From Candidatus Babeliales bacterium (GTDB lineage Bacteria; Babelota; Babeliae; Babelales; JANWKD01), in assembly GCA_963762115.1 (NCBI GenBank), contig CAVXJH010000006.1, forward strand, positions 521,662-585,661: DNA of 64,000 nt, in the 5' to 3' direction. Each line of letters opens with the position of its first letter. Positions within the stretch are counted from its first letter, which is position 1. Position numbers and translations under genes: made by a program. Positions 34,201 to 51,120 of the stretch are shown piece by piece. The notes below the pieces were generated by a model that did no database searches, was not told where the DNA came from, and was given only the letters and a program-made list of their open reading frames with translations.

Positions 34201-36885
34201 ATGAAAAAAGCATCAATAATGTTATCCGTTTTCTTATTTTTTATTTCTTACAACATCAAATCTGAACTTTTTTTGCAGATAAATCCTGAATTTTTGGATA
34301 GTTTTTATTTTAAAAATCAGGAAGCGAAAAATCATTTAAAGCATATTGTTAATCATCGAAGTGCGCAAGAAACAGAGAGTTATTTGAAAAGTTTACCTTT
34401 AGAAACACAAGAGATGCTATATGATACTATGCAAACAAGTGTAGATGAAAAGGGCAATACGCTATTTCATTTACTTGGAGATAAGAAGATAGTTGAAAAA
34501 TTTTTATTTTTGAAACCAGATGTAAATAAGAAAAATAAATTAGGCATTACGCCATTAATGATGTTTATAGCTTTGAAAAATAGAGAAGGTGCAAAAATAT
34601 TACTTGAAAAAGCTAATAATGTAGATGTGAATTCACGAGATAATAATGGTTGCAATGCATATCATGTGGCTTTTTTTTGCGATGGTTGTGAAATTATTAA
34701 AAGTCTGTTAGAGAAAGGGCTTGATATTAATTATGTTGATAAATGGGGTAACACACCTTTAGTTATGGCTATCGATATTGGCAACATTGAAATTGTACAA
34801 TTACTTGTTAATTGGCATGTAGATGTCAATAAACCTGCCGAAAGGTATTTTAATTTCGACAAAGAAGATGCTCATTTAAAATTTTCTGATAAAGAATATT
34901 TACCGCCATTGATTCTTGCAATAAACCGTTATAACCCTGAAATAGTCAAAATTTTAATAGAGGCAGGGGCTGATACAAATATAATCATACGAGAAAATTT
35001 TAATCCACTTATAATCGCCATTAATTTTGCTTCTAATATTGAAATTATTCAACTACTTCTTAAGGGGGGTGCTAATAGTAATCAAAAAAGTCATGGAATG
35101 ACAGTTTTGATGCATTTAATTCCTATTGATCGCAATAAAAAGGAAAAGCGTAGCATTACTCAATTATTGTTGGATAATGGCGCATGTATACATGAGGTTA
35201 CGCAAGAGAGTAATGATAGTATCTTCTCATTTTTGGGTTTAAAATTTATAGATAAAAATATCCCTAACATGGAAAATCATTTAAAGGCAACAAACATATC
35301 AGCACTTATGTGTGCTGCACTATACGGTGACAAAGCTATGGTAAAAACGTTACTTAAGGCGGGTGCTCAGGTGAATGCGGTAACCTCACAAGGTATGACA
35401 CCGCTTATGTTTGCTGTTATTTCTGGAGAATTAAAATGTGTGCAACTACTGATTAGTGCTGGTGCAGATCTTCATGCTCAAGATGTTTTTGGGATGAGTG
35501 CATATCAGCTTGCGATAATAACTAACAATCCGTACATCGTTTATGCATTTCATTTAAGTTTTGAAGTAGAAAATTATCAAAAAGATGCAATAGAAAAAAA
35601 TGACAATCAAGGAATTGTGAATGCTGTTGAAAATCATTCTACGACACCAGATATTTTATTAGATAACATTATTTGCGGAAAAATTTCTGAAAAAGATTTT
35701 AATAATGAATCACTCGATAGCTCATTGGAAGATGTATCATATCAAAAAGAAGATCGCAAAATTTCTTTATGGCAGGGATTTCCTCAAAAAGAAGATGAAA
35801 AGAAAAATACTGTTTCTCCTTATATCGATGATGCATTGTTAGAAGATATTTTGAAAAAAGTTCCACCACAACAAGATTCGTTTGAGATGCGAAATATAGA
35901 ATTATGCACTAGAAACAATAGGGATCGTTATGATGAAGATTTTAATAATGAATTATTAGCTCATTGTCCTGAAAAGTTGCGCTCTATAGTTGAGGAATTA
36001 AAAAATAGAGATCTCTTTGATAATGATTTATATCATGGCATTATTCCTCATCACCTGTTGCTTGTTGGGCCACCCGGAGTCGGTAAAAGCTCATTGGCAA
36101 AAGCAATAGCAGAGATTTGTCATATATCATATGCTTTTATTAAAGCACCACTTTTAGCTAATGAATATACGAATTCAGGACCAAGCAATTTAAGCAGAAT
36201 TTTTGATCCAATTTTTAAAAGCGATGAGCCATGTATTGTTATAATAGATGAATTGCAAACACTTATTCAAAAAAAAGATAGAAATAGTCTTGATACAAGC
36301 TGCGCTGAAGCCTTATGGATTTTACTTGATGAATGTAAAACAAAAAATAATATTTTGATTATAGCAACGGCAAATGAAATTGATGTGTTGCCTGAACAGT
36401 TACGCAGTCGTTTATCAAAAAGTGTCCATCAAATAGCTTTGCCAAAATTATCAGCTCGAGAGCGAATAATTGCTTATTATGTTTCAAAGGTTCCGGTGAA
36501 CATATCATTAAAAATCACTGAAAATGATATAAAACACTATGCAAAAAAGACGTGCGATTTTTCAATTCGTGATTTGGAGGATATGATCGAAGTCGCAGTT
36601 TCAAACGCATATTTTAAACGATGTAAACAACAAATACATCATAAAGTTTTAGATAAAAATGATTTGGAACAAGCATATCAACATATAAAACAACAAAAGA
36701 ATTCAGGGTTTTTGCCTGAATGGTGCAAAGATGTTAAAAATTATATTATACCTGCCATTGCAGTGCCTATGGGTATTGCAGCCGTGCAATTGGCTGTACA
36801 ATGCTATATTTCTTATACATCACATCAAATTTCTTATGCGCAAGCGGAAGCTCATCATCAGGATTTTTTAGCGTTAAGGAAATAA
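34201..36885 (+). CDS. Secreted ankyrin-repeat + AAA+ ATPase protein with C-terminal hydrophobic helix
   Basis: Many TPL..A ankyrin repeats; GPPGVGKS, IIDELQ, IATAN, LPEQLRSR. Confidence 0.9.
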   Translation: MKKASIMLSVFLFFISYNIKSELFLQINPEFLDSFYFKNQEAKNHLKHIVNHRSAQETESYLKSLPLETQEMLYDTMQTSVDEKGNTLFHLLGDKKIVEKFLFLKPDVNKKNKLGITPLMMFIALKNREGAKILLEKANNVDVNSRDNNGCNAYHVAFFCDGCEIIKSLLEKGLDINYVDKWGNTPLVMAIDIGNIEIVQLLVNWHVDVNKPAERYFNFDKEDAHLKFSDKEYLPPLILAINRYNPEIVKILIEAGADTNIIIRENFNPLIIAINFASNIEIIQLLLKGGANSNQKSHGMTVLMHLIPIDRNKKEKRSITQLLLDNGACIHEVTQESNDSIFSFLGLKFIDKNIPNMENHLKATNISALMCAALYGDKAMVKTLLKAGAQVNAVTSQGMTPLMFAVISGELKCVQLLISAGADLHAQDVFGMSAYQLAIITNNPYIVYAFHLSFEVENYQKDAIEKNDNQGIVNAVENHSTTPDILLDNIICGKISEKDFNNESLDSSLEDVSYQKEDRKISLWQGFPQKEDEKKNTVSPYIDDALLEDILKKVPPQQDSFEMRNIELCTRNNRDRYDEDFNNELLAHCPEKLRSIVEELKNRDLFDNDLYHGIIPHHLLLVGPPGVGKSSLAKAIAEICHISYAFIKAPLLANEYTNSGPSNLSRIFDPIFKSDEPCIVIIDELQTLIQKKDRNSLDTSCAEALWILLDECKTKNNILIIATANEIDVLPEQLRSRLSKSVHQIALPKLSARERIIAYYVSKVPVNISLKITENDIKHYAKKTCDFSIRDLEDMIEVAVSNAYFKRCKQQIHHKVLDKNDLEQAYQHIKQQKNSGFLPEWCKDVKNYIIPAIAVPMGIAAVQLAVQCYISYTSHQISYAQAEAHHQDFLALRK

Positions 36886-37442: not shown

Positions 37443-37997
37443 TTAATAAGATAGTAGCAGAGGGAAAATTTTGCTAATTAATATTGCATAACCAAATTCA
37501 ATTACAAAGAAACGAATTGTATTTAACATCCAAAAAAAACTAGCGGTATATCTAATAATTAGGTTCAGTATTTGAGATTCGGGAGGGTAAGATAGGTATA
37601 CCTTTTCTAATACTTCTAGATCAGTGGAACTCGGAAAAGCATGCATCCCACTAGAAAAACCAATCCAAGCCATAATAATAAAAAGCAGTTGCACGCCTTC
37701 TGGTTGTTCAAGGTGATCATCAAACCAACTCATAGGAAGACATGAGGGTAGAGTAAAAATTGCGCACACTAATGTGTTAATAATAAACGGGGCGATCGTA
37801 ATCAGATATTGTTCAATAACATTTGTTGTTGGCTCATACTCAACGTACCCAGATACTTTATTTGAGGGAAGAAAATATTTAACTTTATATACAGTTAATC
37901 CAAATTTATCGCAAAAGAGTCTGTGGGCTATTTCATGGATGATAACACCGGGAAAAGTAATTATTGTTATGAGTATAGTAGGAATAATAATTATCAT
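37443..37997 (-). CDS. Membrane zinc-metalloprotease-like protein (HExxH)
   Basis: PGVIIHEIAH, IAPF, AFPSSTD; several TM segments. Confidence 0.75.
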   Translation of the reverse strand: MIIIIPTILITIITFPGVIIHEIAHRLFCDKFGLTVYKVKYFLPSNKVSGYVEYEPTTNVIEQYLITIAPFIINTLVCAIFTLPSCLPMSWFDDHLEQPEGVQLLFIIMAWIGFSSGMHAFPSSTDLEVLEKVYLSYPPESQILNLIIRYTASFFWMLNTIRFFVIEFGYAILISKIFPLLLSY

Positions 37998-37999
37998 GG

Positions 38000-38404
38000 T
38001 TATTTTCTCATGAAATAAGGTTTAAGTTCTTTTGGCATATGGGTAGTTACAATGTCCAAATCAGTATCATTCAGCTTTAATTTAATTTCTTCGAGTATAT
38101 TTAATGCTTTATGAGTTTTATTAAGCGCAAAATAGGTCTGAACTGCGTGGACTTTTGCAATTTTTGAGTTTTTTAGAGAGGACAAGATATATTTATATCC
38201 ATTAAGTGCTTCGTGATAATTGCCCCAGATGAAATTTTGTTGTGCGACTTTTAGAACACGATTTAATTCATAATATTTTGGAAAAAAGAATGCCAAAAAA
38301 TACAACAATCCTAAAAATGAGCCAAGTGCTATTACTCTGAAGGTAATCGGATACGAATGGGGTGGTATTGCACTCAATGTTTCATTGTTTTCTACTTCAA
38401 ACAT
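38000..38404 (-). CDS. Membrane-anchored TPR-like protein
   Basis: One TM helix then GNYHEALNGY / HKALNILEE helical repeats. Confidence 0.55.
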   Translation of the reverse strand: MFEVENNETLSAIPPHSYPITFRVIALGSFLGLLYFLAFFFPKYYELNRVLKVAQQNFIWGNYHEALNGYKYILSSLKNSKIAKVHAVQTYFALNKTHKALNILEEIKLKLNDTDLDIVTTHMPKELKPYFMRK

Positions 38405-38468
38405 ACTCTTCTTTCAAATTATTGTTCATAGCCCCTTATATGTATACTTTATGAGTTTTCTAAAATAT

Positions 38469-38998
38469 TTAATGTTTTGATAGTTCAAGTTGTTCTTTAA
38501 CCAAAAAATTTCTAAATCGTTGAATAATATGCGCTAAATTTTCTGCAATAGAATGGTTATTGAAATTATATTCATCATCAGAAGCAGGAGGCATATAAAT
38601 TAAGAACTCATTCATTTCGCTAGGATGATCAAAGTCCCAATATACACTTTCAATTGCATCTATAAGTTCTCTATTACTATAATTTTTATCAAGTAAGGAT
38701 TGTAATTTTATAAAACGCCATTTTTTTTTTCAATGTTCCACTCTTTAGAATTTTCTTCTATTTTTATATTTAATTCTTCCAATAATTTTTCTAATTTATC
38801 ATTGATTTCAAAATCATCTTTTAATCCATATGCTAATTCTATGATATTAATATTATCTAATTTATAATGTTCAGATAAATATTGAGATGCAAAATCTTCT
38901 ATGAATTTACTGTTAATTAAATTTAATTTTCTTCCTATGTATATCGTTTTCCAAGAAATAGAAATATTATTTTTTTTAAAATCATTTAGCTGAATCAT
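38469..38998 (-). pseudogene. DUF2247-like immunity protein, frameshifted in a 10-nt homopolymer
   Basis: ATG overlaps the toxin stop; adding one A at 38721-38730 gives EKKKWRFIKL...IESVYWDFDHPSEMNEFLIYMPP...SKH*. Confidence 0.75.
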
Positions 38999-41900
38999 TT
39001 TTTTCCTGGCCAAATATTAGGTTTTCCTGTTATGATTCCATCTTTAATGAATAATCTATGAACAACGCCTTTTGAAGGATCGGGATGCACAATCCATTCA
39101 AAAATACCTTTTTCACCATTTAATGATCCTTCTATTTGATATAAAATTTTTCTTACTGTTTCTTTGTCATATAGATCGAATTTTTGAGCATATTCAACAT
39201 AATTATCAATTATATCACTAAATTTATGATAAGAATCTAATTTTAATGCTTTGCCACTTCTAATATTTTTAGTGACTTCATTATCAATAATTCGTAAGAC
39301 ATTATTTTCAGTATCAAGTGTATGTGATAAATCTTTTGAGAAAGCTTCATTACTATAATTTTTAGATTTTTGAGCTTGTCCCTCATTCATAGATTGTAAT
39401 AATGCAGAAGTTCCTTGAATGGCAGTTGTACCAAATGGTGTTGATCCAATAATCTCTCCAACGCCTTGGACGACTCCAGCAGCCTCTGTTGCCAATTCTT
39501 GTATTAAAGCAATATTCTGAGGTACAGCAAGCATATTTCCACCAGACATACTCGGCGGTATAAATTCTCCCATAGAAATTATGCAGTCGCCCATTACTCG
39601 GCTAATTAATTTAGCGCCACTGCCTAAGGCTTTATTTGCAGCGAGGTCAACAAGTAATTTTGCAACAAATTCTTTTTTATGTTCAATGGGTAGTTCTTTC
39701 CAATTTTTAGAAAATGCATGAACTGCTTCATTATATTTTTTGCTAAACTCAAATGCTTCTTTTTGCGTTGCTCCAAAAGCACTTATATTGTTTTTGCTAT
39801 AATCAACGACACAAGAACAGAGAAAATGCCCTAATTCTCCAAAGTCTTTAGCAGCATTCAATAAATAATTTCCTGGATGAGTTATTGTTTCATGCGCATA
39901 ATCGCCAATTTCTTTTAATGGCAAATCGGTAAAAACAATTTTAAAACAGTCCTTTATAACTTCTTCTACATTTTCTGCTAAGGTTAACTGCGTATCTCGA
40001 TTTAGTTTTATTGTTTCAATTTCGCGTAACGCGGATTCTTGTGATGATGCTAAATATTCATGAATAATTTCATTTTTCAATTCACCATTATCAGAATTCC
40101 ATAATTTGTCATTCTCCAGTAATTCTCTCATTAATGAGCGTTCATAAATCATGTTTAAATCAGGTTTTTGCTCAGGAGATGTCTGGAATTTTTGCATTTC
40201 ATGAGAACTGTAAGATTCGGTTTTACCCGTATGCAACAATTCTAAACTCTGTCTGAAGAAGGGAAGATCTTCTTGTGATTTGGTGCGACACATTTCGGGT
40301 CGATTTAATACATCCAATTCACGGACTATTTCTGCAATAGTTCTATTCAATGGTACTTGTGATGTTGCTGAATGATCTAATGATTCGAATTCTTTATTTA
40401 ATTTTAGTAATAGCGTTTGTAATTGATCTATGCGTTTTTCTGACCCACCTTCTTGTTTTAATCTATTGATTTCATTTGATAGATTAGTGCGAGCAGCAAG
40501 AGTTCGACGAGATATGTTTTCTTTTGCAACAAGATCTTCTGATAAAGAGAAATTGTTATTTTGTAAAATTGTTTTCTCATTTTCTGTAGGTTTTATATTT
40601 TGAGGAATTGCGTTAGAATTTGCAGTAGATTCTGATCTTCGTACTATTGGACCACTTAAGGTTTGCAGTCGATGAGCAATCCTTTTACTTGCCTCAGTTA
40701 TTTTGCATAGATCTTCAAATGTATTCACTTCATGAAATTGTTTATCTATGGCGAGTAGATCAGACTGATTATCCTTGATAAACTTTCGTGGGGCATTTTT
40801 GTTTTGTAGATTGTTGGTTGTATCTACTAAATTGAGCACAGTCTTCATTACATTATCTTGAGCTCTGAGTTGCATTTGATTTGGTTGATCTAAAATTAAG
40901 CTACCGCATTGAAGAATTGTTGTATTTTTTTTGCCTTCTAATGCATCGACTATTGCTGAGGCTAATCCTAAATGTAGCTCTTTATTCAAACCTTCAGTGG
41001 AACAAGCTTTTGCGATGTAGCCAACGGCATTACGGTGTGCCTGTAACATATGTAATGGTTCTTGTGAAGCAAGTACAGCAACTTTAAGTAAGAGCACACG
41101 TTCTTTAAGATGTTCTGGTTGGATAATTGATGAGGGTATAATGATATCTTTGAATATACATTCATCAAAATTATAAAGGCGAGGTAATCCTCGTTGATCA
41201 AAAAGTGGTTTGATAGCTTCATAATATTTGGGGTCATTTTGTTTTTCTGTTAAGACAGAAATAAAATGATCTATAACTTTCATAGGTTGCTGTGAAGCCG
41301 CATAAGGAGCTACTTCATGCAATAAATCCATAATTTCCAGATTTGCAGAGATATTTAATGGTTGCAAAATATGCTTTGTACAATATTCTGTAGAAAGCTC
41401 TGCATAAAGTTTGCTTATAATGAGATAATCATCTTCTGGTGAAGATGAATTGTACATGACATGATCTTTGTAGCAATCAACTATATATTTTGCTGCTTCT
41501 AATTGATGATCCTCGAATAAGTGGACTACATTTCTTAATTCTTGATTTTGAATATTTTCCAATACTCGTTGTCGCATTTCAAGTGGATTAGAAGGATAAA
41601 GATCCGATTTTTTATGCAGTTCTTGCTTCATCCAAAATGCATTCTCTTCATTGCAAATTCTTTGAAAACAAGGTCGATTTTCTTTTTTAAAGTTTTCAAT
41701 TACCTGCTTATATGCATTAGGCATCTCTTTTTTTAAATAATTTGTTATGGTACGAGCTATTTGATAATGATCTTCGGCGCTTAAGGAAGCTTTTAATGAA
41801 CCATCGGGCTTGCATAAAATATAGGTCGATTGATTAATAGCATTTTGAAGATGTACGTTTCTTTGTGTTAAATCTTGAGTTATTCCTGGCACAGAAAAGG

Positions 41901-42276
41901 TAAGATTGGTGAGTGCGAGTGTAGATCGTGTTGATTGAGTTTGAGCTGCTTTACTGAGTGCATTTGCATAATTTACGACCTGAGCATGTATTTTAAGAGT
42001 TTCAGCAAATTGTTTTTGTTGTTCAGCTGAAAACGTATGTGTTTGAGCTGGTAATGCTGCATAGGGAGTGTTTGTGCGATGGCGGAGTTGATCGTATGAA
42101 GCTTCGCGCATCATAAAATCATTAAGTGAATTACTTAATGATGAAGTATTATTAGTGTTATAGCTAAAATTGCTATTTATTGTTATAAGGCTTCTTCTAT
42201 CTTGATCTTCCATGCATTGTGAGTTTTGGAAAATATGAAGAGTAAAGAATAAATTTATAAAAAATAATTTTTTCAT
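38995..42276 (-). CDS. Large secreted polymorphic-toxin-like protein with C-terminal toxin domain
   Basis: Signal ...NSQC|ME; Gly/Ala-rich pre-toxin segment; tip RSGKALKLDSYHKFSDIIDNY..LYQIEGSLNGEKGIFEWIV..HRLFI..G.P. Confidence 0.8.
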   Translation of the reverse strand: MKKLFFINLFFTLHIFQNSQCMEDQDRRSLITINSNFSYNTNNTSSLSNSLNDFMMREASYDQLRHRTNTPYAALPAQTHTFSAEQQKQFAETLKIHAQVVNYANALSKAAQTQSTRSTLALTNLTFSVPGITQDLTQRNVHLQNAINQSTYILCKPDGSLKASLSAEDHYQIARTITNYLKKEMPNAYKQVIENFKKENRPCFQRICNEENAFWMKQELHKKSDLYPSNPLEMRQRVLENIQNQELRNVVHLFEDHQLEAAKYIVDCYKDHVMYNSSSPEDDYLIISKLYAELSTEYCTKHILQPLNISANLEIMDLLHEVAPYAASQQPMKVIDHFISVLTEKQNDPKYYEAIKPLFDQRGLPRLYNFDECIFKDIIIPSSIIQPEHLKERVLLLKVAVLASQEPLHMLQAHRNAVGYIAKACSTEGLNKELHLGLASAIVDALEGKKNTTILQCGSLILDQPNQMQLRAQDNVMKTVLNLVDTTNNLQNKNAPRKFIKDNQSDLLAIDKQFHEVNTFEDLCKITEASKRIAHRLQTLSGPIVRRSESTANSNAIPQNIKPTENEKTILQNNNFSLSEDLVAKENISRRTLAARTNLSNEINRLKQEGGSEKRIDQLQTLLLKLNKEFESLDHSATSQVPLNRTIAEIVRELDVLNRPEMCRTKSQEDLPFFRQSLELLHTGKTESYSSHEMQKFQTSPEQKPDLNMIYERSLMRELLENDKLWNSDNGELKNEIIHEYLASSQESALREIETIKLNRDTQLTLAENVEEVIKDCFKIVFTDLPLKEIGDYAHETITHPGNYLLNAAKDFGELGHFLCSCVVDYSKNNISAFGATQKEAFEFSKKYNEAVHAFSKNWKELPIEHKKEFVAKLLVDLAANKALGSGAKLISRVMGDCIISMGEFIPPSMSGGNMLAVPQNIALIQELATEAAGVVQGVGEIIGSTPFGTTAIQGTSALLQSMNEGQAQKSKNYSNEAFSKDLSHTLDTENNVLRIIDNEVTKNIRSGKALKLDSYHKFSDIIDNYVEYAQKFDLYDKETVRKILYQIEGSLNGEKGIFEWIVHPDPSKGVVHRLFIKDGIITGKPNIWPGKK

Positions 42277-43886
42277 CACACCCATTTAAATGGCCAAGAT
42301 ATAATGTTATAAGCTTTCTCGCAAATATCAGATCGGTTTTCTATAATAGGATAGGCTAATTTTGCTCCATAAGAGATGCATCCTATAATAAAAGCTGCAT
42401 TAGGATTTATGTCTTTTAAAATAGTTGATACTCCTATTCCAGCATCGCAAGCCATTTGTACGTGAGAGTTTCTCATTTGCTCATTATGAAAATCACTTGA
42501 TTGTTGTTTACTTTCATTATGTAATTGATTGGTTTGTGCTAAGCTTTGTCCTTGCAGTATTTTTGCCTGATCTAACCCTTCAGTATGAAACTTTTGTGCT
42601 TGAGCAAGACTTGCAAGATGAAATTCTTTTGCCTGTGCTATCGATTCTCGATGAAATGAGGCATTTTGAGCAAGGCTTGCAAGGTGCATTTCTTGTTGTG
42701 CTTTTGCTGCCTGTATTTGCATGCAATAATTAAATCCAAGAGTTATTACAAGAGGGATGCTGATTTGTAATGCTGGCATAATCGCGGGTTTAATAAATTC
42801 ATACGTTTTTGTTTGCCAGGATTCATGAATGCCGTTATTATTTTTTATATAATCCATGGCTTGTAATAATTCTTTTTTTGTTAATTGTAATGTAACATTT
42901 TGATCTTGATTGCCTGCTTTTTTGATATCGATACTTTCTATTATTTCTTCGAACATTCTATCAAAATCACGTGCTGCAAAGCCATTTGTTTTTTTTGCCA
43001 GGTAATTGATATCACGCTGTGTTAATGAAATTGTTATTAAGCAGCTAATTTTTGCAATATGGTAGTTAATATTGCTTATTCGATCATAGAAATCTGGTAA
43101 TGTAATTTTATAACATCTGTTAGAAAGACGTTGTCTTAGTTGTTTGGGTAATCCATTTAATTCATTTGCAGTGCCGATAAATAAAATATTTTTTGTTTCT
43201 GTAATTTCATCTAATAGTTGCCAGAGAACGCTTGCTGCATTATTATCATTTTTGTTTTGATCATGTTTTATGATTTTTTGCATTTCATCTAAAATAATAA
43301 CATGAGGATCATTTAAATCTTGTATTCTATTAAAAGTATCATTAAGTTTACTTTCTGCTGAATTTTGATATTGATTGCCAAGTGTTGTAGCTTTTATGAT
43401 GGTGTATTTTAATTTACAATATTGTGAAATTGCAATTGCTAAAGTAGTTTTTCCAACACCTGGAGGTCCTACAAGAGTAATGAAAGGTGGTTTGTCATAG
43501 CGTTCTCTTTGATATAAATCTGATTTAGAAGCGACTCTTGCTTTTACTGTTTCTATAAAAAATTGTAATTTTTCAGGAGAATCATCAATATATTTTTGTA
43601 TTCTTTCCTCGTCAAATTTTGTGTTTCTTTGGCGAATAGAACCTGCCATTTGTTGGGCAGTGAAATCATCTTTAGTATTTAAGTTAAAGTATTGATAGGC
43701 ATTATCGACTGGAGGGATTTCTTTTTCTGTTTGATCATCATTTTGTGTATGAGGAGGAAGCAATCTTGATGGTTTTTCTTTAGTCTGCTTTTGTTTAGGT
43801 ATGGGGAATCGTTGATCTTCTTCCATTGCATGTGCAATAAAAAAACTTAAAAATATACTTACTATTAAAAATGATTTGTGCTGCAT
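42276..43886 (-). CDS. Secreted AAA+ ATPase with TM helix and 11-residue repeats
   Basis: Signal ...IAHA|ME; GPPGVGKTT, IILDEMQ, IGTAN, LPKQLRQR. Confidence 0.88.
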   Translation of the reverse strand: MQHKSFLIVSIFLSFFIAHAMEEDQRFPIPKQKQTKEKPSRLLPPHTQNDDQTEKEIPPVDNAYQYFNLNTKDDFTAQQMAGSIRQRNTKFDEERIQKYIDDSPEKLQFFIETVKARVASKSDLYQRERYDKPPFITLVGPPGVGKTTLAIAISQYCKLKYTIIKATTLGNQYQNSAESKLNDTFNRIQDLNDPHVIILDEMQKIIKHDQNKNDNNAASVLWQLLDEITETKNILFIGTANELNGLPKQLRQRLSNRCYKITLPDFYDRISNINYHIAKISCLITISLTQRDINYLAKKTNGFAARDFDRMFEEIIESIDIKKAGNQDQNVTLQLTKKELLQAMDYIKNNNGIHESWQTKTYEFIKPAIMPALQISIPLVITLGFNYCMQIQAAKAQQEMHLASLAQNASFHRESIAQAKEFHLASLAQAQKFHTEGLDQAKILQGQSLAQTNQLHNESKQQSSDFHNEQMRNSHVQMACDAGIGVSTILKDINPNAAFIIGCISYGAKLAYPIIENRSDICEKAYNIISWPFKWV

Positions 43887-44066
43887 TACAAAGCTCCTTG
43901 CGTCATTAACTTAAGATGATAAATTGATACAAGGCTATCGTCTTTTTGATAAAAGTAAATGTGGTTTGATTTTGTAAGGTGCTTTTGCAAGAACCTCTAT
44001 TCTGTGATAGTATACCGTAAAAAAAGGTACACATTTTAGTAACCCCTTCAATACAAGGAAAACATA

Positions 44067-45122
44067 ATGCAAAAACAACAATATTCATTATTAATGGTAG
44101 CGCTTGCTTCATTAGTTATACTGCCACAATGCGAATGGCTTGAATCAAAAAAATCTGCTGAACCTACGAGTACAACCGGTGTTGAAACTCAAGCAACTGC
44201 AGGATCAAAAGCAGTAGCACCTACAATAGGAACTGGTAAAGGCATTGATGGTGAAGTGCTTATAACGATGTATGATGCAAAAGTGCCAAAAGCAAGTATT
44301 AATGACTTTAAAGAATATATTGATGAGTTCTTAGAAGCACAACCACAATATAAACAAGTTTTTGAAATGATGCCTGGCGCAGAAGAACAAATTTTTGATG
44401 GTTTAAAGAATGAACTAGTTCTTGCTGAATGGGTTGAGAAGAACGGCATTAATAAAAAGCCTGAATATTTAAAAGATGAAGAAAAAATTAAAAAATTTGG
44501 CCGTCGCAGCTTGAATGTGAAATATTTCCAAGAAGCGTATCCGGTGAAAGTTACTGATTCTGAAGTCAAAAAATATTATGACGAAAATAAGAACAGTATT
44601 CCTCAGTTGATGCTCGCTCCGGGTGGTGTTGCTGCACAAGGCGTGATGTTTGATACTAAAGCTGCAGCACAAGCTTTCTATGATAAGGTAAAAGACGTTA
44701 AGACAAATTTTGAAAGTGTTGCAAAAGAATCAACCCTAAGCGTGAAAGATTTTGGCGAAGTTAACAATCAAAGTTTCAATGTTGATGGCGTGATTCGTAA
44801 AAAATTGCTTGATGCTAAGAAGTTTCCTGTCGTTGAATTAGTTGAAATCAATGATAAATCATTTGCCGTGGTTAAAGCAACCGGTAAAAAAGAACCAAAT
44901 TATGTACCATTTGAAGATGTAAAATCTGGTATTGAAAATATGCTAAAACAACAAAAAATTGCTGAAGCATTAAACAAAGAGCTTGATAAACTCGCACAAG
45001 AATATAAAGTTGTTGTAAACAAAGATTATTTTGAGCGCAAGAAAAAAGCTAAAAATCCAGAAGCAGCAATGCAATCAGAAGAAGTGCCAGCTACTAAAGC
45101 TGCACCAATGAGATCAATGTAA
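44067..45122 (+). CDS. PrsA/SurA-like parvulin-type chaperone (possible lipoprotein)
   Basis: Signal with Cys; KVTDSEVKKYYDENK, FESVAKE, PFEDVKSGIENML. Confidence 0.75.
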   Translation: MQKQQYSLLMVALASLVILPQCEWLESKKSAEPTSTTGVETQATAGSKAVAPTIGTGKGIDGEVLITMYDAKVPKASINDFKEYIDEFLEAQPQYKQVFEMMPGAEEQIFDGLKNELVLAEWVEKNGINKKPEYLKDEEKIKKFGRRSLNVKYFQEAYPVKVTDSEVKKYYDENKNSIPQLMLAPGGVAAQGVMFDTKAAAQAFYDKVKDVKTNFESVAKESTLSVKDFGEVNNQSFNVDGVIRKKLLDAKKFPVVELVEINDKSFAVVKATGKKEPNYVPFEDVKSGIENMLKQQKIAEALNKELDKLAQEYKVVVNKDYFERKKKAKNPEAAMQSEEVPATKAAPMRSM

Positions 45123-45140
45123 ACAAAATAGTTATTATTG

Positions 45141-45176
45141 ACATAAAGGGGAATTACTCGTAATTCCCCTTTATGT
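45141..45176 (+). terminator. Intrinsic terminator after 44067..45122
   Basis: acataaaggggaatta-ctcg-taattcccctttatgt perfect stem. Confidence 0.75.
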
Positions 45177-45196
45177 TTTAAAAGACTGGAAGATCA

Positions 45197-46168
45197 ATGA
45201 ATCGAGCTATGAAAACTACCTTTTTCTCATTATTTAGTATGTTAGTTCTTTTTTTTGGTATAAAGGAACTTTCAGCAACAATTAAAGAATCAAATGAGCT
45301 TCCGACTGATGTGCCTACTCAAGAAATGATGGTAGAACAATCTGTTGAAGATAATGATCGTTTCTTGATCAATGAAGTTGCCGTTGTTGTTGATGGACCT
45401 GAGCGTAGATTTTATGTAACCACTCTTGATTTAGAAACCCCAAGCTTTGATGGGAGAATTCCGTCGCTTGATGATATCGTTGATGAAGAATTGATATATC
45501 AAGATGCTCTTAAGCATAAAATTCCTATTACTGAATATGCTCAAAAACATATTCAAAGTATCAAAAAACAGCATAAGCTCTCAGATGAAGCTTTTACTAA
45601 AATTTGCGCGAACGCAGGGTTAGATCAAGCTTCTGCATTAGAAAAATTTGAAAAAATGGGTGCTGGAAACACCATGGTGCAACATAAAGCAGATAGTTTT
45701 GTAGCTGAACATGAAGTAAAAGAATATTATGAGGCAAATCCAATTAGTAAACCCGCTAAATATCAATTGCAAGTTGGCTTTGTTCCTTTTGATAGAAATA
45801 AAAGCGTAGATCAACAAAAGAGCGAATTAGAAAAAACATTGCGTTCCAATCCGGAAGCAATTCATTGGAATGAGCCGTTTTGGCTTAAAGAAGTTGATAT
45901 TGCTGAAGATAAAATGTACGTAACTAAAATGTCGGTTGGTGATATTTCAACGCCGCAGGCAACTGATGGTGGTTTTGAAGTTCTTCGCTTAAAAGATAAA
46001 AAAGATGCTTATGTTGTTCCGCTGGAAAAACGTTATGGTGAAATTGTTCACACATTGCGCATGCCAAAATTGCAGGAAACTGTTGAACAATATAAAAAGA
46101 CTTTGCGTGAATCCAGCTCAATTGTTGATATTAGAAAGCCGCAGGAAGCACGTCATATTTGTGATTAA
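45197..46168 (+). CDS. SurA-like periplasmic chaperone/PPIase
   Basis: INEVAVVVDG, VDEELIYQDA, VKEYYEAN, MSVGDISTP..GGFEVLRL. Confidence 0.7.
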   Translation: MNRAMKTTFFSLFSMLVLFFGIKELSATIKESNELPTDVPTQEMMVEQSVEDNDRFLINEVAVVVDGPERRFYVTTLDLETPSFDGRIPSLDDIVDEELIYQDALKHKIPITEYAQKHIQSIKKQHKLSDEAFTKICANAGLDQASALEKFEKMGAGNTMVQHKADSFVAEHEVKEYYEANPISKPAKYQLQVGFVPFDRNKSVDQQKSELEKTLRSNPEAIHWNEPFWLKEVDIAEDKMYVTKMSVGDISTPQATDGGFEVLRLKDKKDAYVVPLEKRYGEIVHTLRMPKLQETVEQYKKTLRESSSIVDIRKPQEARHICD

Positions 46169-47364
46169 TTATTACCGAATACCTTTATTGCCATTCCATG
46201 TAAATCTTTTAATGCAATGTTGTTATTAAGAGTGCGTTGCATTAATGAGGAACTTTTCAATGCAGGATTTATTTTTTCGGCCTTTTTTTTCTTACATGAT
46301 GCACTATATTCCTGTCTTTTTTGAATGCTTGCTTGAGTTAAATCTTGATTAAAGTAATGCATTCCTAATTGTAATGTTAATGGTATAGCGATCAGAATGG
46401 TATGTTCAATGTAGGGCTTTATGGTTTTATATGTTGTTTTGTACCATGGTTTAAATCTTTTATCGGTATATGTTATAAAAGTAATTGCTTGTTCAAAATC
46501 ATATAGTGTCGGTGTAATTGTTGGTTTGTAATAAGTACACCGTTCAGAAGCATTATAATTCCCTTGTATTACCATTTCTTCTAAATCGTGTGGCGTAAAA
46601 TTTTTAGTTATTTTTCCTAATATGTTGACTTCACATGGGGTTAGGCACGGTGAATGCAAAGCAAGATGATAATTAATAATCTTTTCTCTTTTTTTTTGAT
46701 TGGGCAGGGAAATGGCGTGAGCATTGTATATATGCTTTCTAATCTGCTCGGGTAAATTTTTTCGTTCATTGGCGGTGGCAATAATCAAAAAATTTTTTTT
46801 CTTTTTAAATGTATCTAAAAAACTCGATAAATAATCTGCATCGTAATCTTCGTTAATCATTTGTAAACCATCTAAAATAATTACTTTCGGTTCTTTATTT
46901 TCTTTCAAGGGGCCAAGAATATTTATAAGATCACTTTGACCTGAATGATTATATTGATGTACTAATGCTGGGAATGAGACAAAGGTATAGCGCAATCCAC
47001 ATTTTAAGGCGATTGCTTTTGCCAACGAGGTTTTTCCTGCTCCAGAAGGGCCAACTAAGAGATGCATATTAGACAAAAATGGTATTGCTTGCAATAAATT
47101 ATTAGGTTCGATTCTTTTGGTGATAATTCGGATAATTTTTTGAATTTCTTTTGGACTCTCCTCAATAAGTTCATCAATTAACTTTTCATCTAATTGCTCT
47201 TCTTCTGAGCAATATTTTTCTTGATCTTCCATGCAGTAAATAATATTAGTAGTTAATGATGAAAAAAGAAGCATTATGAAAAAATATTTTTTCCATAGAT
47301 TACTTTGAGGTAAAAATTGTCCTGAGATAAATTTTATTTGGAAAAAATATGATTGAAGCTGCAT
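46165..47364 (-). CDS. Secreted AAA+ ATPase paralogue with degenerate Walker B
   Basis: ...IIYC|ME; GPSGAGKT; VIILDGLQ (Glu missing); IATAN; C-terminal hydrophobic helix. Confidence 0.8.
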   Translation of the reverse strand: MQLQSYFFQIKFISGQFLPQSNLWKKYFFIMLLFSSLTTNIIYCMEDQEKYCSEEEQLDEKLIDELIEESPKEIQKIIRIITKRIEPNNLLQAIPFLSNMHLLVGPSGAGKTSLAKAIALKCGLRYTFVSFPALVHQYNHSGQSDLINILGPLKENKEPKVIILDGLQMINEDYDADYLSSFLDTFKKKKNFLIIATANERKNLPEQIRKHIYNAHAISLPNQKKREKIINYHLALHSPCLTPCEVNILGKITKNFTPHDLEEMVIQGNYNASERCTYYKPTITPTLYDFEQAITFITYTDKRFKPWYKTTYKTIKPYIEHTILIAIPLTLQLGMHYFNQDLTQASIQKRQEYSASCKKKKAEKINPALKSSSLMQRTLNNNIALKDLHGMAIKVFGNN

Positions 47365-47689: not shown

Positions 47690-48334
47690 ATGAAAAAACT
47701 ATGTATTTGCTTAAATGAATTAGAAGTAAAAGTCTTTGTAGGTATTTTATTATTACTAGGTTTTCCTTACTTGTTATTTTGGCTCAATAAAGATCTTAAT
47801 TATTCTAGTTCTGATTATGCTAATATTTTAACGTCAGCAGCTACTTTACTAACTGCTGTTTATGCCACTTTTTTACTCGTGCCGAATTACTTTAAGCAAA
47901 AGAGAGCTGAAAATTTAACTGAAGCTGCTAAAGAAGTATTGAGCATTTTGACAGAAACTGAAGTAGAGATAAAAAAACTTTTCTTACTTAAAGATGAAAC
48001 TATAAAAAGTTTTTACAATGATTATGCAAAAGAGCATATTAAAGTTCAATTTAAACTATCTTTTTTGCTCAACAAATTACGAAATGGTTTATTGTTAGTA
48101 AGAAAAAAAGTTGATTTAGTAAAAAATGAAAAAATACCCAACTTTGTAGAATTAGTTGCAAGTTTAGAACAGGTATTGAGTCAAAGGCCTACAAGTTATC
48201 CAGCTTCTTTTATAACAATAAATTTTCTTAGTGAATGTGGTCTTTTAAACACAGGTAAAGATTCACTTGATCTCGGTAAGCTCAAAGATCTCAGAGAGGT
48301 ATTGTTATCAATTTATGAGTTAGACGAGCAATGA
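47690..48334 (+). CDS. Two-TM membrane protein, first gene of nuclease-helicase island
   Basis: Two N-terminal TM helices; stop overlaps the helicase start (ATGA). Confidence 0.7.
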   Translation: MKKLCICLNELEVKVFVGILLLLGFPYLLFWLNKDLNYSSSDYANILTSAATLLTAVYATFLLVPNYFKQKRAENLTEAAKEVLSILTETEVEIKKLFLLKDETIKSFYNDYAKEHIKVQFKLSFLLNKLRNGLLLVRKKVDLVKNEKIPNFVELVASLEQVLSQRPTSYPASFITINFLSECGLLNTGKDSLDLGKLKDLREVLLSIYELDEQ

Positions 48335-51120
48335 AAAAATCAAATTTTAATCAAATAATTGAACATTTTTCATCTTTCGCTCCTGAAGTAAAAGGAAGAA
48401 AATTTGAAGTGCTTTGCAAGTGGTTTTTAGAAAATGATTTTACTTATTCAGAACAAATCAAAAAAGTTTGGCTTTGGCAGGAGTGGCCTGGTAACTGGGG
48501 CAGGGATAAGGGCATTGACCTTGTCGCAGAAACTTATAGCGGTGAATTATGGGCAATACAAGCAAAAGCTTATGATGAAAGTTATTACATAACAAAAGAA
48601 GACATCGATACATTTTTAAGTGAGTCTTCTCGTAAGGATTTTTCATTTCGTCTTTTAATTTCAACGACAAATAATATTGGCCCGAATTCTCGTGAAGTAC
48701 TCCTTGCTCAAGAAAAACGGGTTGGTCTTTGTCTTCGTGATAATTTAGAATTGTCTGATCTTGATTGGTCATTAATTCTAAAAAATTCAGGTGAAAAATT
48801 TAAACAAGATCCAAAAATCCCACGTAAACATCAAGAAGCTGCAATTAATGCCGTTATGAAGGGCTTTGAACAATCTTCTTATGGTCAGATTTATATGGCT
48901 TGCGGTACAGGGAAAAGTTTGATTGGTTTATGGTTAGCTGCAAAATTAAATGCCAAAAATATTCTTGTACTAGTCCCTTCTATTTCTTTAGTAGCTCAAT
49001 TATATAAAGAATGGTCGAGTAATGCTGGTGATTTTACTTTTGATCCTATTTTTGTGTGCTCAGATCCTACTGTAAGTAAAGCTAATGATGATTGTATGTC
49101 ATTTGATTCTATTGATCTTGGCTTTCCGGTTACCACTAATGTTGATGAAATTTTAACTCAATATTTTCGAAACACTTCTCGGTCAAAAATTATTTTTGCA
49201 ACGTATCATTCTTCTCCAATTATTGCTCAAGCATGTTCGCAAGAATTTTCTTTTGGTTTTGATCTTGCCATTGCTGATGAAGCCCATCGATGTGCTGGTG
49301 CTACAACGAGCGATTTGGCAACAATCGTGGATAAATCTGCTATTAGAACGAAGCATAAATTATTCATGACGGCGACGCCAAAAATATTTTCAAATCATGT
49401 TAAACAAAAGACACAAGAAATTGCTTATGAAATTGTTTCGATGGATGATGAAGAAAAATTTGGCCCAATATTTTATAAATTACCGTTTTCTGATGCCATA
49501 AAAAAAGGACTTTTGAGTGATTATCAAGTGCTTATTTCAGTTATGGATAATGCAACATATAGGGGATATGCAGAACGGGGACGGTTTGTGTCTTTTGAAA
49601 ATCATGAAATCGATGCTCGCACATTAGCGAGTCAACTTCTCATTGCAAAAGCTATAAAAAAATTTGATCTAAAAAAAGTCATTAGTTTTCATAGTCGTAC
49701 AAAGGCTGCAAAAGATTTTATTAAGACATTGCCAAAAGCATTACCATTATTACTTGAATCAGAAAAGCCTGTTATTGCATACCAAGCGATACTTTTTGGT
49801 GATATGCCACAATCAGAACGGCATAAAATTTTAAAGCAACTTGATGAAACATCTGATGGTGCAGCTTTAGTTGCTAATGTTAAATGCCTTTCTGAAGGAG
49901 TTGATGTTCCTTCTCTTGATGGTATTGTATTTGTTGAACCAAAAGGTTCTGAAATAGATATTATACAAGCAGTAGGTAGAGCAATCAGAAAATCTTCAGA
50001 CAAAACATTGGGAACTATCATTATTCCCTTGTTTGTTGATGGTATGTTAGATGAAAATCTTGCATTGGATCAATCTTGCTTTAGATCAATTGGAAAAGTA
50101 CTCAGGTCTCTTAGAGCACATGATGATATAATTGCAAAAGAGCTCGATAGCATACGTTTGGAATTAGGAAAAAAAGTTTATACAAGACCATCCAGGTCAA
50201 GTAAAATTTTTTTTGACATATCCATTGAACTTAGTAGTGACTTTAGCGAAACTTTAAAACTTAAGATTTTAGAAAATATTGTTGAACAATGTTCTTCTGA
50301 ATGGAATTATCAGTTTGAGTTACTTAGGGAATTTTATCGATTAAATAATAGATGGCCAGCTCAACACGAAGAGTTTCCTATTGAGAATAAGCTTGGCATG
50401 TGGTGTAGTTATCAGCGAACACTCTATAAGAAAAAATTTCTAAGAAATGAACAAATAAAAGTCTTAGATTCAATTGGGTTTGTTTGGGATTTATTAAGTG
50501 CTGTTTGGGAAGAAAATTTTTTATTATTAAATAGCTTTAAAAAAGTCAATGGTCATTGTAATGTTCCTGCAATATATTTTGAAAATCAAACACTTGCTAC
50601 ATGGGTATCTGTGCAACGCAGAGCATTTAAAAAGGGATTATTATCTCTAATGCAGTTAGAAAAGTTAAATTCGATTGGGTTTGTTTGGGACATATTAAGT
50701 GCTGTTTGGGAAGAAAATTTCTTATTATTGAATAGCTTTAAAGAAGCAAACGGGCATTGTAATGTTCCTGCAAGATATCTTGAAAATCAAATTTTGGCTA
50801 CATGGATTTGTACACAACGTTATGATTACAAGAAACATAGAATGTCTCAAGATCGTATTAACAAGCTTAATTCTATCGGATTTATTTGGGACTTGATTGA
50901 TAAGAGTTGGGAAAATAGTTTTTTCAAATTATGTAAATTCAAGGAAATCAACGGGCATTGCAATGTGCCAAAACGATATGCTAATGATCCTTCATTGGCT
51001 AGATGGGTAATGACGCAGCGAAAATCATATAAGGATGGAAAGTTATCTGAAAAGCGTATTAAAAAATTGAATGAAATATGTTTTCAATGGTATCAAAAAC
51101 GAGGAATCTCTAATATTTAG
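48331..51120 (+). CDS. Mrr-like nuclease + SF2 (ResIII/DEAH) helicase + four helicase-associated (HA) repeats
   Basis: GIDLVAE..WAIQAK; MACGTGKS; ADEAHR; MTATP; EGVDVP; QAVGRAIR; four W...GHCNVP..LA.W...QR..GF.W units (201-bp period at 50470/50671). Confidence 0.9.
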   Translation: MKKSNFNQIIEHFSSFAPEVKGRKFEVLCKWFLENDFTYSEQIKKVWLWQEWPGNWGRDKGIDLVAETYSGELWAIQAKAYDESYYITKEDIDTFLSESSRKDFSFRLLISTTNNIGPNSREVLLAQEKRVGLCLRDNLELSDLDWSLILKNSGEKFKQDPKIPRKHQEAAINAVMKGFEQSSYGQIYMACGTGKSLIGLWLAAKLNAKNILVLVPSISLVAQLYKEWSSNAGDFTFDPIFVCSDPTVSKANDDCMSFDSIDLGFPVTTNVDEILTQYFRNTSRSKIIFATYHSSPIIAQACSQEFSFGFDLAIADEAHRCAGATTSDLATIVDKSAIRTKHKLFMTATPKIFSNHVKQKTQEIAYEIVSMDDEEKFGPIFYKLPFSDAIKKGLLSDYQVLISVMDNATYRGYAERGRFVSFENHEIDARTLASQLLIAKAIKKFDLKKVISFHSRTKAAKDFIKTLPKALPLLLESEKPVIAYQAILFGDMPQSERHKILKQLDETSDGAALVANVKCLSEGVDVPSLDGIVFVEPKGSEIDIIQAVGRAIRKSSDKTLGTIIIPLFVDGMLDENLALDQSCFRSIGKVLRSLRAHDDIIAKELDSIRLELGKKVYTRPSRSSKIFFDISIELSSDFSETLKLKILENIVEQCSSEWNYQFELLREFYRLNNRWPAQHEEFPIENKLGMWCSYQRTLYKKKFLRNEQIKVLDSIGFVWDLLSAVWEENFLLLNSFKKVNGHCNVPAIYFENQTLATWVSVQRRAFKKGLLSLMQLEKLNSIGFVWDILSAVWEENFLLLNSFKEANGHCNVPARYLENQILATWICTQRYDYKKHRMSQDRINKLNSIGFIWDLIDKSWENSFFKLCKFKEINGHCNVPKRYANDPSLARWVMTQRKSYKDGKLSEKRIKKLNEICFQWYQKRGISNI

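Follow-up and report, generated by a model that had tools for sequence, protein, structure and literature searches.

The 64-kb window analyzed here (G000:C6:521662-585661, G000 being the source genome, a member of the Babelota or Dependentiae; coordinates without a prefix are window positions) contains a locus in which the genes of a signal-peptide AAA+ ATPase, a polymorphic toxin and a DUF2247 (Imm38) immunity protein follow one another, in this order, on the minus strand. The toxin and its immunity gene almost certainly belong to a real, modular and phylum-wide polymorphic toxin-immunity family of the Babelota, which is apparently undescribed and contributes two unnamed body domains, termed here domain A and domain C. 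The complete proposal, a toxin-immunity system with a co-encoded and likely co-exported AAA+ that is predicted to unfold the toxin or thread it into a rival bacterium, we regard as moderately probable.

The f1-body profile matched 21 of the 261 genomes of the phylum and 46 representatives among 1.84 billion proteins, and a profile of domain A (21 rows) matched 55/261 genomes, distributed over 8 of 21 families and 36 of 145 genera; relatives of the locus are labelled Ca. Dependentiae or Babeliales by their sources. The domain-A rows were merged into 96 loci, 25 of them used for building and 71 held out, of which 40, taken by rank and contig size, were examined. Most held-out loci encode a protein of 690-1600 amino acids (aa) with a signal-like start and a short gene directly behind it; toxin bodies range from 700 to 1600 aa across the family, and no recognisable tip was seen at L062, L069 and L071. 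Domain C is common to a subset of the family only, an iterated profile recovering it in 41 proteins and, above 50 bits, in 7 of 20 loci anchored on an AAA gene; since it is also found in toxins that have no domain A, modularity extends to the body. Domain A was also observed by itself, as the C-terminal part of a 1615-aa protein, or in two copies (L062:7899-9239, L046:4768-6225, L071:7824-12668, L045:5929-10320).

The last 125 residues of 94 proteins fell into 30 tip clusters, 14 of them with at least two members. Pfam named 13 of 59 tips, namely 11 EndoU (one just under the cut-off), Ntox35 and Ntox21. Behind the toxin open reading frames (ORFs) a same-strand ORF lies within 400 nt in 63/64 cases and within 30 nt of the stop in 55/64, its median length being 136 aa; six of 56 such genes received a Pfam name (Imm38, Imm40, CdiI_N and three CdiI_ImmP), and the downstream genes cluster in step with the tips. 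A divergent Ntox19-like tip at L076 is followed by Imm40, and Imm38 stands downstream at the window, L010 and L040. A first-pass annotation of this stretch had proposed an undescribed polymorphic toxin of an intracellular lineage, with tips and downstream genes expected to vary on a shared body; the spread of domain A, the tip clusters found by the homologue search and the cognate downstream genes bear out both points.

The literature searched, which covered no supplements (that of PMC3482391, which may list a Babela protein, included), held no description of these toxins or of an exported AAA that takes part in delivering toxins, and no paper was found that has "Dependentiae" and "polymorphic toxin" together; the main texts on TM6 (PMC4776705) and Chromulinavorax (PMC6561590), as far as accessible, contain neither "toxin" nor "AAA". 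Word-index homology searches returned 3-4 proteins only, and a GTDB-wide pattern scan four Babelota-type loci plus two weak generic AAA matches; both are too insensitive to prove restriction to the phylum.

Exchange of tips was apparent among close relatives. The second locus of the genome (L001, on G000:C3) holds an AAA, a homologous toxin with a different tip, a TPR-type gene of 238 aa, Imm38, a 192-aa gene and an AAA. The first-named of these AAA genes has an ATT start codon after a good ribosome site and a promoter and signal region 80% identical in DNA to the window counterpart. In G110, of the same genus, L009 is the syntenic copy of the window locus and has a third tip with a 103-aa gene, and L010 is a copy of the C3 locus, yet with the window tip followed by Imm38, a pair that also recurs at L040; in G109 the C3 tip (tip Y) is found at L012 with the TPR-type gene, as at L001. 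Because the combinations at L009, L010 and L012 exchange them, tips and downstream genes travel jointly between loci. The GC content of the window tip and immunity gene is 0.19-0.28, versus 0.33-0.34 for the toxin body; this shift and the return of the same arrangement at independent loci speak against a chance layout. A third toxin-immunity pair of G000 (C3:575897-580526) consists of a 1427-aa toxin, its tip 53% like P0027, with a 115-aa gene behind it.

The DUF2247 gene of the window is read in two frames, its first piece matching PF10004 positions 2-80 (34.5 bits) and its second positions 84-157 (48.9 bits), both over the cut-off of 25; an intact orphan Imm38, 62% identical to it, lies at L001:12153-12680 and likely covers for the split copy. 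The L001 toxin is likewise split, in an A8 run. Frameshifts are otherwise rare, affecting in G000 only 1/177 orthologue pairs (from 315 G110 queries, 440 kb), and both breaks, that of Imm38 in an A10 run and that of the L001 toxin, are therefore probably genuine rather than long-read errors, with the caveat that A9-A10 runs are rare themselves; on the same count a general long-read error behind both was set aside. The second locus (L001:7362-11422) looks partly decayed or phase-variable.

Orphan immunity or tip cassettes were found at L001 (Imm38), L011, L012, L041, L044 and L066, which bears on the target of these toxins. That they attack the protist, or the mitochondrion of the protist, with immunity genes that protect the producer during synthesis only, is very unlikely. 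Chromulinavorax is enclosed by the mitochondrion of its host while it replicates, and it degrades the nucleus of the host and sheds vesicles (PMC6561590); any RNA or DNA could, moreover, be a substrate of nuclease tips. Yet host-directed toxins of endosymbionts generally come without immunity genes, according to the accessible text of PMC3482391, and the orphan immunity arrays (L001, L011, L012, L044, L066) together with the fast exchange of tips indicate conflict between related bacteria. Arrays of at least three orphan immunity genes were seen at L012:2554-4067 and L044:11050-13474, both including CdiI_N, and at L066, with seven related genes. Separately, L011 and L042, the two ends of G108:C1, hold the same tip-immunity stretch in opposite orientation, one with a changed tip end, which is either a duplication or an assembly artefact.

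The window toxin (1096 aa if counted from an upstream ATG) had no Pfam (E<=0.5) or NCBIfam match. Its model, built from 65 alignment rows, comprises an all-helical domain A with a predicted local distance difference test (pLDDT) mostly >90, a second helical domain (C), a linker rich in Gly and Ala that is modelled with low confidence, and a tip of alpha+beta type. Domain A had no match in PDB by sequence search or in Atlas, and Foldseek with the whole toxin gave none in PDB or BFVD at E<=0.001; for the tip, the PDB sequence search named no fold and Atlas gave unnamed clusters only. The toxin model also aligned with a 156-aa "ankyrin" protein of Bodo saltans virus (rank 34; 90 columns, probability 1.00, E 0.12); fusions of Ntox19 to ankyrins are described in mimivirus (PMC3482391).

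Two Rhs-type proteins, one of them from Gorillibacterium (60% identity), and other carriers end in sequences with 50-60% identity to the tip. An alignment of 11 tips showed D1014, H1017, D1024, E1060 and H1073-R-x-F1076 to be conserved, all of these except D1024 being retained in 10-11 of the 11 rows. Ntox19 is described by the motif D, H, DxxxR, E, HxxF, with a predicted BECR RNase fold and the partners Imm38 (DUF2247) and Imm40 (PMC3482391). DxxxR is ExxxK in the window tip, the model of which shows a helix plus antiparallel sheet. The tip therefore fits an Ntox19-like, predicted RNase, an assignment made by motif and immunity partner and not by profile score. As regards the first-pass annotation, its TGATG (42278-42274) and ATGA (38998-38995) overlaps, joining AAA to toxin and toxin to DUF2247 gene by stop and start codons, are exactly where it had placed them, its Rhs/CdiA-like tip and DUF2247-like next gene were recovered, and Pfam and NCBIfam scans detected none of the Rhs (YD repeats), haemagglutinin, LXG, PAAR and MuF regions that it had reported missing from the body.

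The link between toxins and AAA genes was evaluated with an AAA profile made from training loci only, using as controls windows of the same size from the same genomes. A match of at least 90 bits was present in 12/20 held-out toxin windows versus 0/20 controls, and one of at least 30 bits in 13 versus 2, figures to be read with the control positions being hand-chosen round numbers and related loci not being independent; among all held-out toxin windows 21/40 had an AAA of at least 90 bits. In the reverse direction, 20 strong AAA loci without a domain-A match were inspected, and in 11 a toxin could be identified by its tip or by domain C (one of them, L135, duplicates L053), compared with 0/20 controls; four more contain an orphan tip, genes resembling immunity genes, or a large neighbour that was not recognised. 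All five AAAs of the group in G000 lie within ~5 kb of two toxin loci. The commonest single arrangement over all loci is an AAA directly 5' of the toxin, often with overlapping stop and start, and the promoter-like motif and ribosome site are kept 5' of the AAA in 4/5 aligned family-f1 loci. Toxins with domain C are AAA-linked in 16/20 cases versus 21/44 for the others (training loci included), and linked AAAs accompany different toxin bodies in several families. A functional tie between AAA and toxins is, in our judgement, probable.

The window AAA has the Walker A (140-147), pore-loop Y173, Walker B (198-201), sensor-1 T239/N241 and arginine finger R253 motifs; Walker A and B, the aromatic pore loop, sensor-1 and the arginine finger are conserved across 21 relatives. 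Its tail consists of a hydrophobic helix (367-385), Q/H-rich 11-residue repeats (~393-475; lags 11 and 22 give 24 and 21 matches versus 2-11 at other lags) and a second hydrophobic stretch (497-515). The model shows a fold like p97, spastin and FtsH with a single helix at 353-470, and the best NCBIfam scores are those of CDC48, CdvC and PAN models, all far below cut-off. By motifs and fold it is likely a classic-clade AAA+ unfoldase, the unfolding itself being a prediction. A co-fold of AAA 70-470 with toxin 570-965 scored 0.02 and was counted for neither side.

Signal-like N-termini were found in 49/59 toxins, 60/75 AAAs and 1/58 downstream genes, by a crude rule that 683/1315 G000 ORFs (52%) also pass. 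The first-pass annotation had described a Sec signal with the ME motif; the signal peptide holds, and the motif occurs in 192/590 signal-like ORFs of G000 versus 32/725 others, so that it was rejected as a signal of this system and is a general export signature on a third of the secretome. It had further recognised no delivery system. This stands for the markers of two-partner (T5SSb), type VI (T6SS), extracellular contractile injection (eCIS), type III and type IV systems, since the 95% complete G000 gave no match to PAAR, sheath, FHIPEP or VirB4 and only a sub-threshold one to ShlB (type VII secretion was not searched), and fails in that signal peptides and two secretins provide an exit. TM6 genomes carry type II secretion (T2SS) components, with two gspD copies in all seven (PMC4776705), and Chromulinavorax has signal peptides on 44% of its genes and putative outer-membrane vesicles (PMC6561590), in the accessible parts of these reports. 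The export route is likely Sec plus secretin, a T2SS-like default exit.

Besides the crudeness of the signal-peptide rule, several observations weigh against the proposal. No AAA of at least 90 bits lies within 5 kb of 20/41 held-out toxin ORFs (three of these 20 have a truncated or 67-73-bit AAA directly upstream), and 5/20 AAA-anchored loci have neither toxin nor immunity gene. For the 21 linked ORFs the AAA abuts upstream in 4, lies further upstream in 2, downstream in 6, divergent in 6 and convergent in 3; it is thus on the opposite strand in 9 and downstream of the immunity gene in 6. The third G000 toxin (C3:575897-580177), which has no domain A or C match, has no AAA nearby. In a survey that scored five candidates per genome, G108, G120 and G121, with several toxins, had only weak best matches to the AAA profile (E ~1e-35), and no AAA of the subfamily was detected in G108, which has at least three toxins, its small contigs included. 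The 11-residue-repeat stalk is short or absent in several AAAs. Moreover, in a quick tree, used only for well-supported sister pairs, the AAA preceding the orthologous toxin of G110 is sister to the second AAA paralogue of the window (support 100) and not to the AAA of the locus; partners are not one-to-one, the toxin-linked AAAs are not demonstrably one clade, and strict AAA-toxin co-evolution was rejected on this swap. The AAA link is therefore real but loose: about half of the loci have no neighbouring AAA, order is not fixed and partners are swapped. Of the dedicated, constantly upstream partner claimed in the first-pass annotation, only the non-random association survives.

An alternative is that the AAAs are independent secreted effectors, for instance p97-like proteins that remodel host membranes, and that they occupy the same effector islands as the toxins, with common promoters and recombination hot spots, without acting on them. 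The ankyrin-AAA fusion of the window, tandem AAA arrays without toxins (L140), the variable order and strand, the ME-type signal shared with a third of the secretome and the genomes with toxins and no strong AAA all agree with it. Ankyrin genes, however, were seen near toxins and also in control windows (14 loci versus 5 controls), which is not the case for the AAAs, and the recurrence of the link with different toxin bodies in several families also makes this explanation unlikely.

The topology of the AAA raises another possibility, that it acts on the receiving or defensive side, as a periplasm-facing ring that helix 367-385 holds in the cell's own inner membrane and whose substrate would be incoming toxin, or toxin made by the cell itself, to be extracted, unfolded or imported, whether as broad immunity, quality control or kin-restricted uptake. 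A signal peptide with a single hydrophobic helix fits type I membrane topology, six linked AAAs follow an immunity gene, some stand beside immunity-like genes without an adjacent toxin (L144, L152), and partners are interchangeable. We consider such a role improbable, since the AAA most commonly stands directly before the toxin, each toxin already has a specific cytoplasmic immunity gene, and periplasmic ATP is not established.

In the mechanism that we propose, toxin and AAA would both cross the inner membrane by Sec and exit by the secretin route of the rest of the secretome; the immunity proteins would remain in the cytoplasm, so the tips would act in a bacterial cytoplasm. The AAA ring would assemble at a site supplied with host ATP; held in a membrane through the hydrophobic helix and the 11-residue-repeat stalk of its C-terminal part, it would pull the toxin through, towards this membrane. 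Any AAA paralogue could serve and some toxins would manage without one, the AAA being a non-essential, exchangeable accessory. The direction is that of classic-clade motors, in which, as in FtsH, p97 and the proteasome, substrate travels to the C-terminal face. A delivery role is favoured because the AAA-before-toxin coupling is the commonest, both proteins are export-tagged, host ATP is at hand and a C-terminal anchor would pull membrane-ward; nevertheless we put forward only tentatively that the AAA acts on the delivery side by threading. More doubtful still is its fullest form, a Sec-exported AAA+ ring on host ATP, docked by the hydrophobic helix and the stalk, that threads nuclease toxins into rival bacteria of the same protist, a two-gene PTEX-like injector without phage-tail or two-partner machinery.

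Exported or membrane-anchored AAA+ rings that unfold or move protein across a membrane are known in Plasmodium HSP101/PTEX, Bcs1 and Msp1; these are eukaryotic and offer an analogy of mechanism only, in using ATP outside the producer's cytosol. The closest described system is MafB/MafI/MafA of Neisseria (PMC4287609, PMC7738311; the likenesses are those in their accessible text). MafB is likewise a signal-peptide-dependent toxin with the immunity gene directly downstream and EndoU, Ntox19, Ntox35 and Ntox21 tips, and MafA an upstream accessory gene that can be cognate or shared. Unlike MafB, the window toxin has no DUF1020 match (Pfam, E<=0.5) and a body of two unnamed helical domains, and its upstream gene encodes a likely exported AAA+ ATPase instead of a MafA-type protein.

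Further comparisons refer to the accessible text of PMC3482391. The T2SS/Sec-dependent toxins and the APD1/APD2 effectors of Amoebophilus resemble our family in signal peptide, lineage-specific constant N-terminus, polymorphic C-terminus and life in protists; however, no signature neighbouring gene is listed there for the former class, whereas an AAA is enriched near our toxins, and the APD effectors are lipoproteins with a predicted host target, whereas immunity genes and orphans are the rule here. The pair of tip and Imm38 shares with the described Ntox19-Imm38 pair the D, H, E, HxxF motif, an Imm38 or Imm40 downstream and the occurrence on Rhs proteins, and differs in ExxxK for DxxxR, the new carrier body and the split adjacent Imm38. 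As with ClpV of T6SS and the CDC48-like AAA of PVC/eCIS, an AAA+ is encoded with toxin genes; those are cytoplasmic and serve a phage-tail machine, in contrast to an AAA with signal peptide and membrane/coiled tail and no sheath or PAAR match.

For a phylum whose members have tiny genomes and live strictly inside cells, this amounts to a widespread predicted antibacterial arsenal, which implies competition inside shared protist hosts. The family yields two toxin body domains without a name, dozens of tip-immunity pairs that are new, and an exported AAA+ family whose association with toxins is statistically clear; should the AAA carry out delivery, a folded enzyme would enter a target cell by a new route.

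Table 1. Features of the window locus (window positions) and members of an associated small family (locus positions).
Feature	Coordinates	Strand	Basis or remark
Putative promoter (TTTACT, 16 nt, TAGCCT), 5' of AAA gene	43932..43959	-	motif; function predicted
AGGAG ribosome site of AAA gene	43898-43894	-	motif
Signal-peptide AAA+ ATPase, 536 aa	42276..43886	-	PF00004 E 3.5e-26
Polymorphic toxin, 1093 aa: signal peptide, domain A, domain C, Gly/Ala-rich linker, Ntox19-like tip	38995..42276	-	
Body domain A, residues ~80-460, all-helical, unnamed, phylum-wide	40897..42039	-	profile and model
Pre-toxin domain C, residues ~570-900, long helices	39577..40569	-	iterated profile
Toxin tip, residues ~985-1093, fits Ntox19	38995..39324	-	alignment, motif, model
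Imm38 (DUF2247) immunity gene, two frames, break at A10 run 38730-38721	38469..38998	-	PF10004
TPR-like membrane gene, 134 aa	38000..38404	-	PF14559 E 9e-4
Putative zincin (DUF3267), 184 aa	37443..37997	-	PF11667 E 6e-6
Second AAA paralogue, 399 aa, Walker B altered to ILDG	46165..47364	-	sister of AAA preceding G110 orthologous toxin
Ankyrin-repeat/AAA fusion, same AAA group, 894 aa, signal-like start	34201..36885	+	Pfam scan, quick tree
~180-aa signal-peptide family members	L035:4312-4860, L036:5478-6026, L038:1655-2768, L049, L060, L066		

The TPR-membrane and protease genes announced by the first-pass annotation do follow on the same strand (Table 1). Among the toxin loci examined, homologues of the TPR gene were found only at the syntenic L009 and those of the zincin only at L009 and L040, and both genes were rejected as core parts. 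At L040:4841-5416 the zincin homologue stands 3' of another Ntox19-like tip with Imm38, in a different family. The locus is flanked by a gene pair that we take to encode PrsA/PpiC-like exported chaperones (44067-46168 in the window, L009:4787-6903 in G110), and large genes, presumably restriction/helicase-like, lie near toxin loci (window 48331-51120; L039:2865-5072; L012:5313-8765), which suggests conflict islands.

A family of ~180-aa signal-peptide proteins without Pfam match was observed between AAA and toxin or beside toxins at six loci and in none of the control windows (Table 1), and is a candidate third component of the system. Finally, L009:14634-19899 holds a tandem array of five related secreted genes of 345-390 aa, four of which cluster with ankyrin-like genes.

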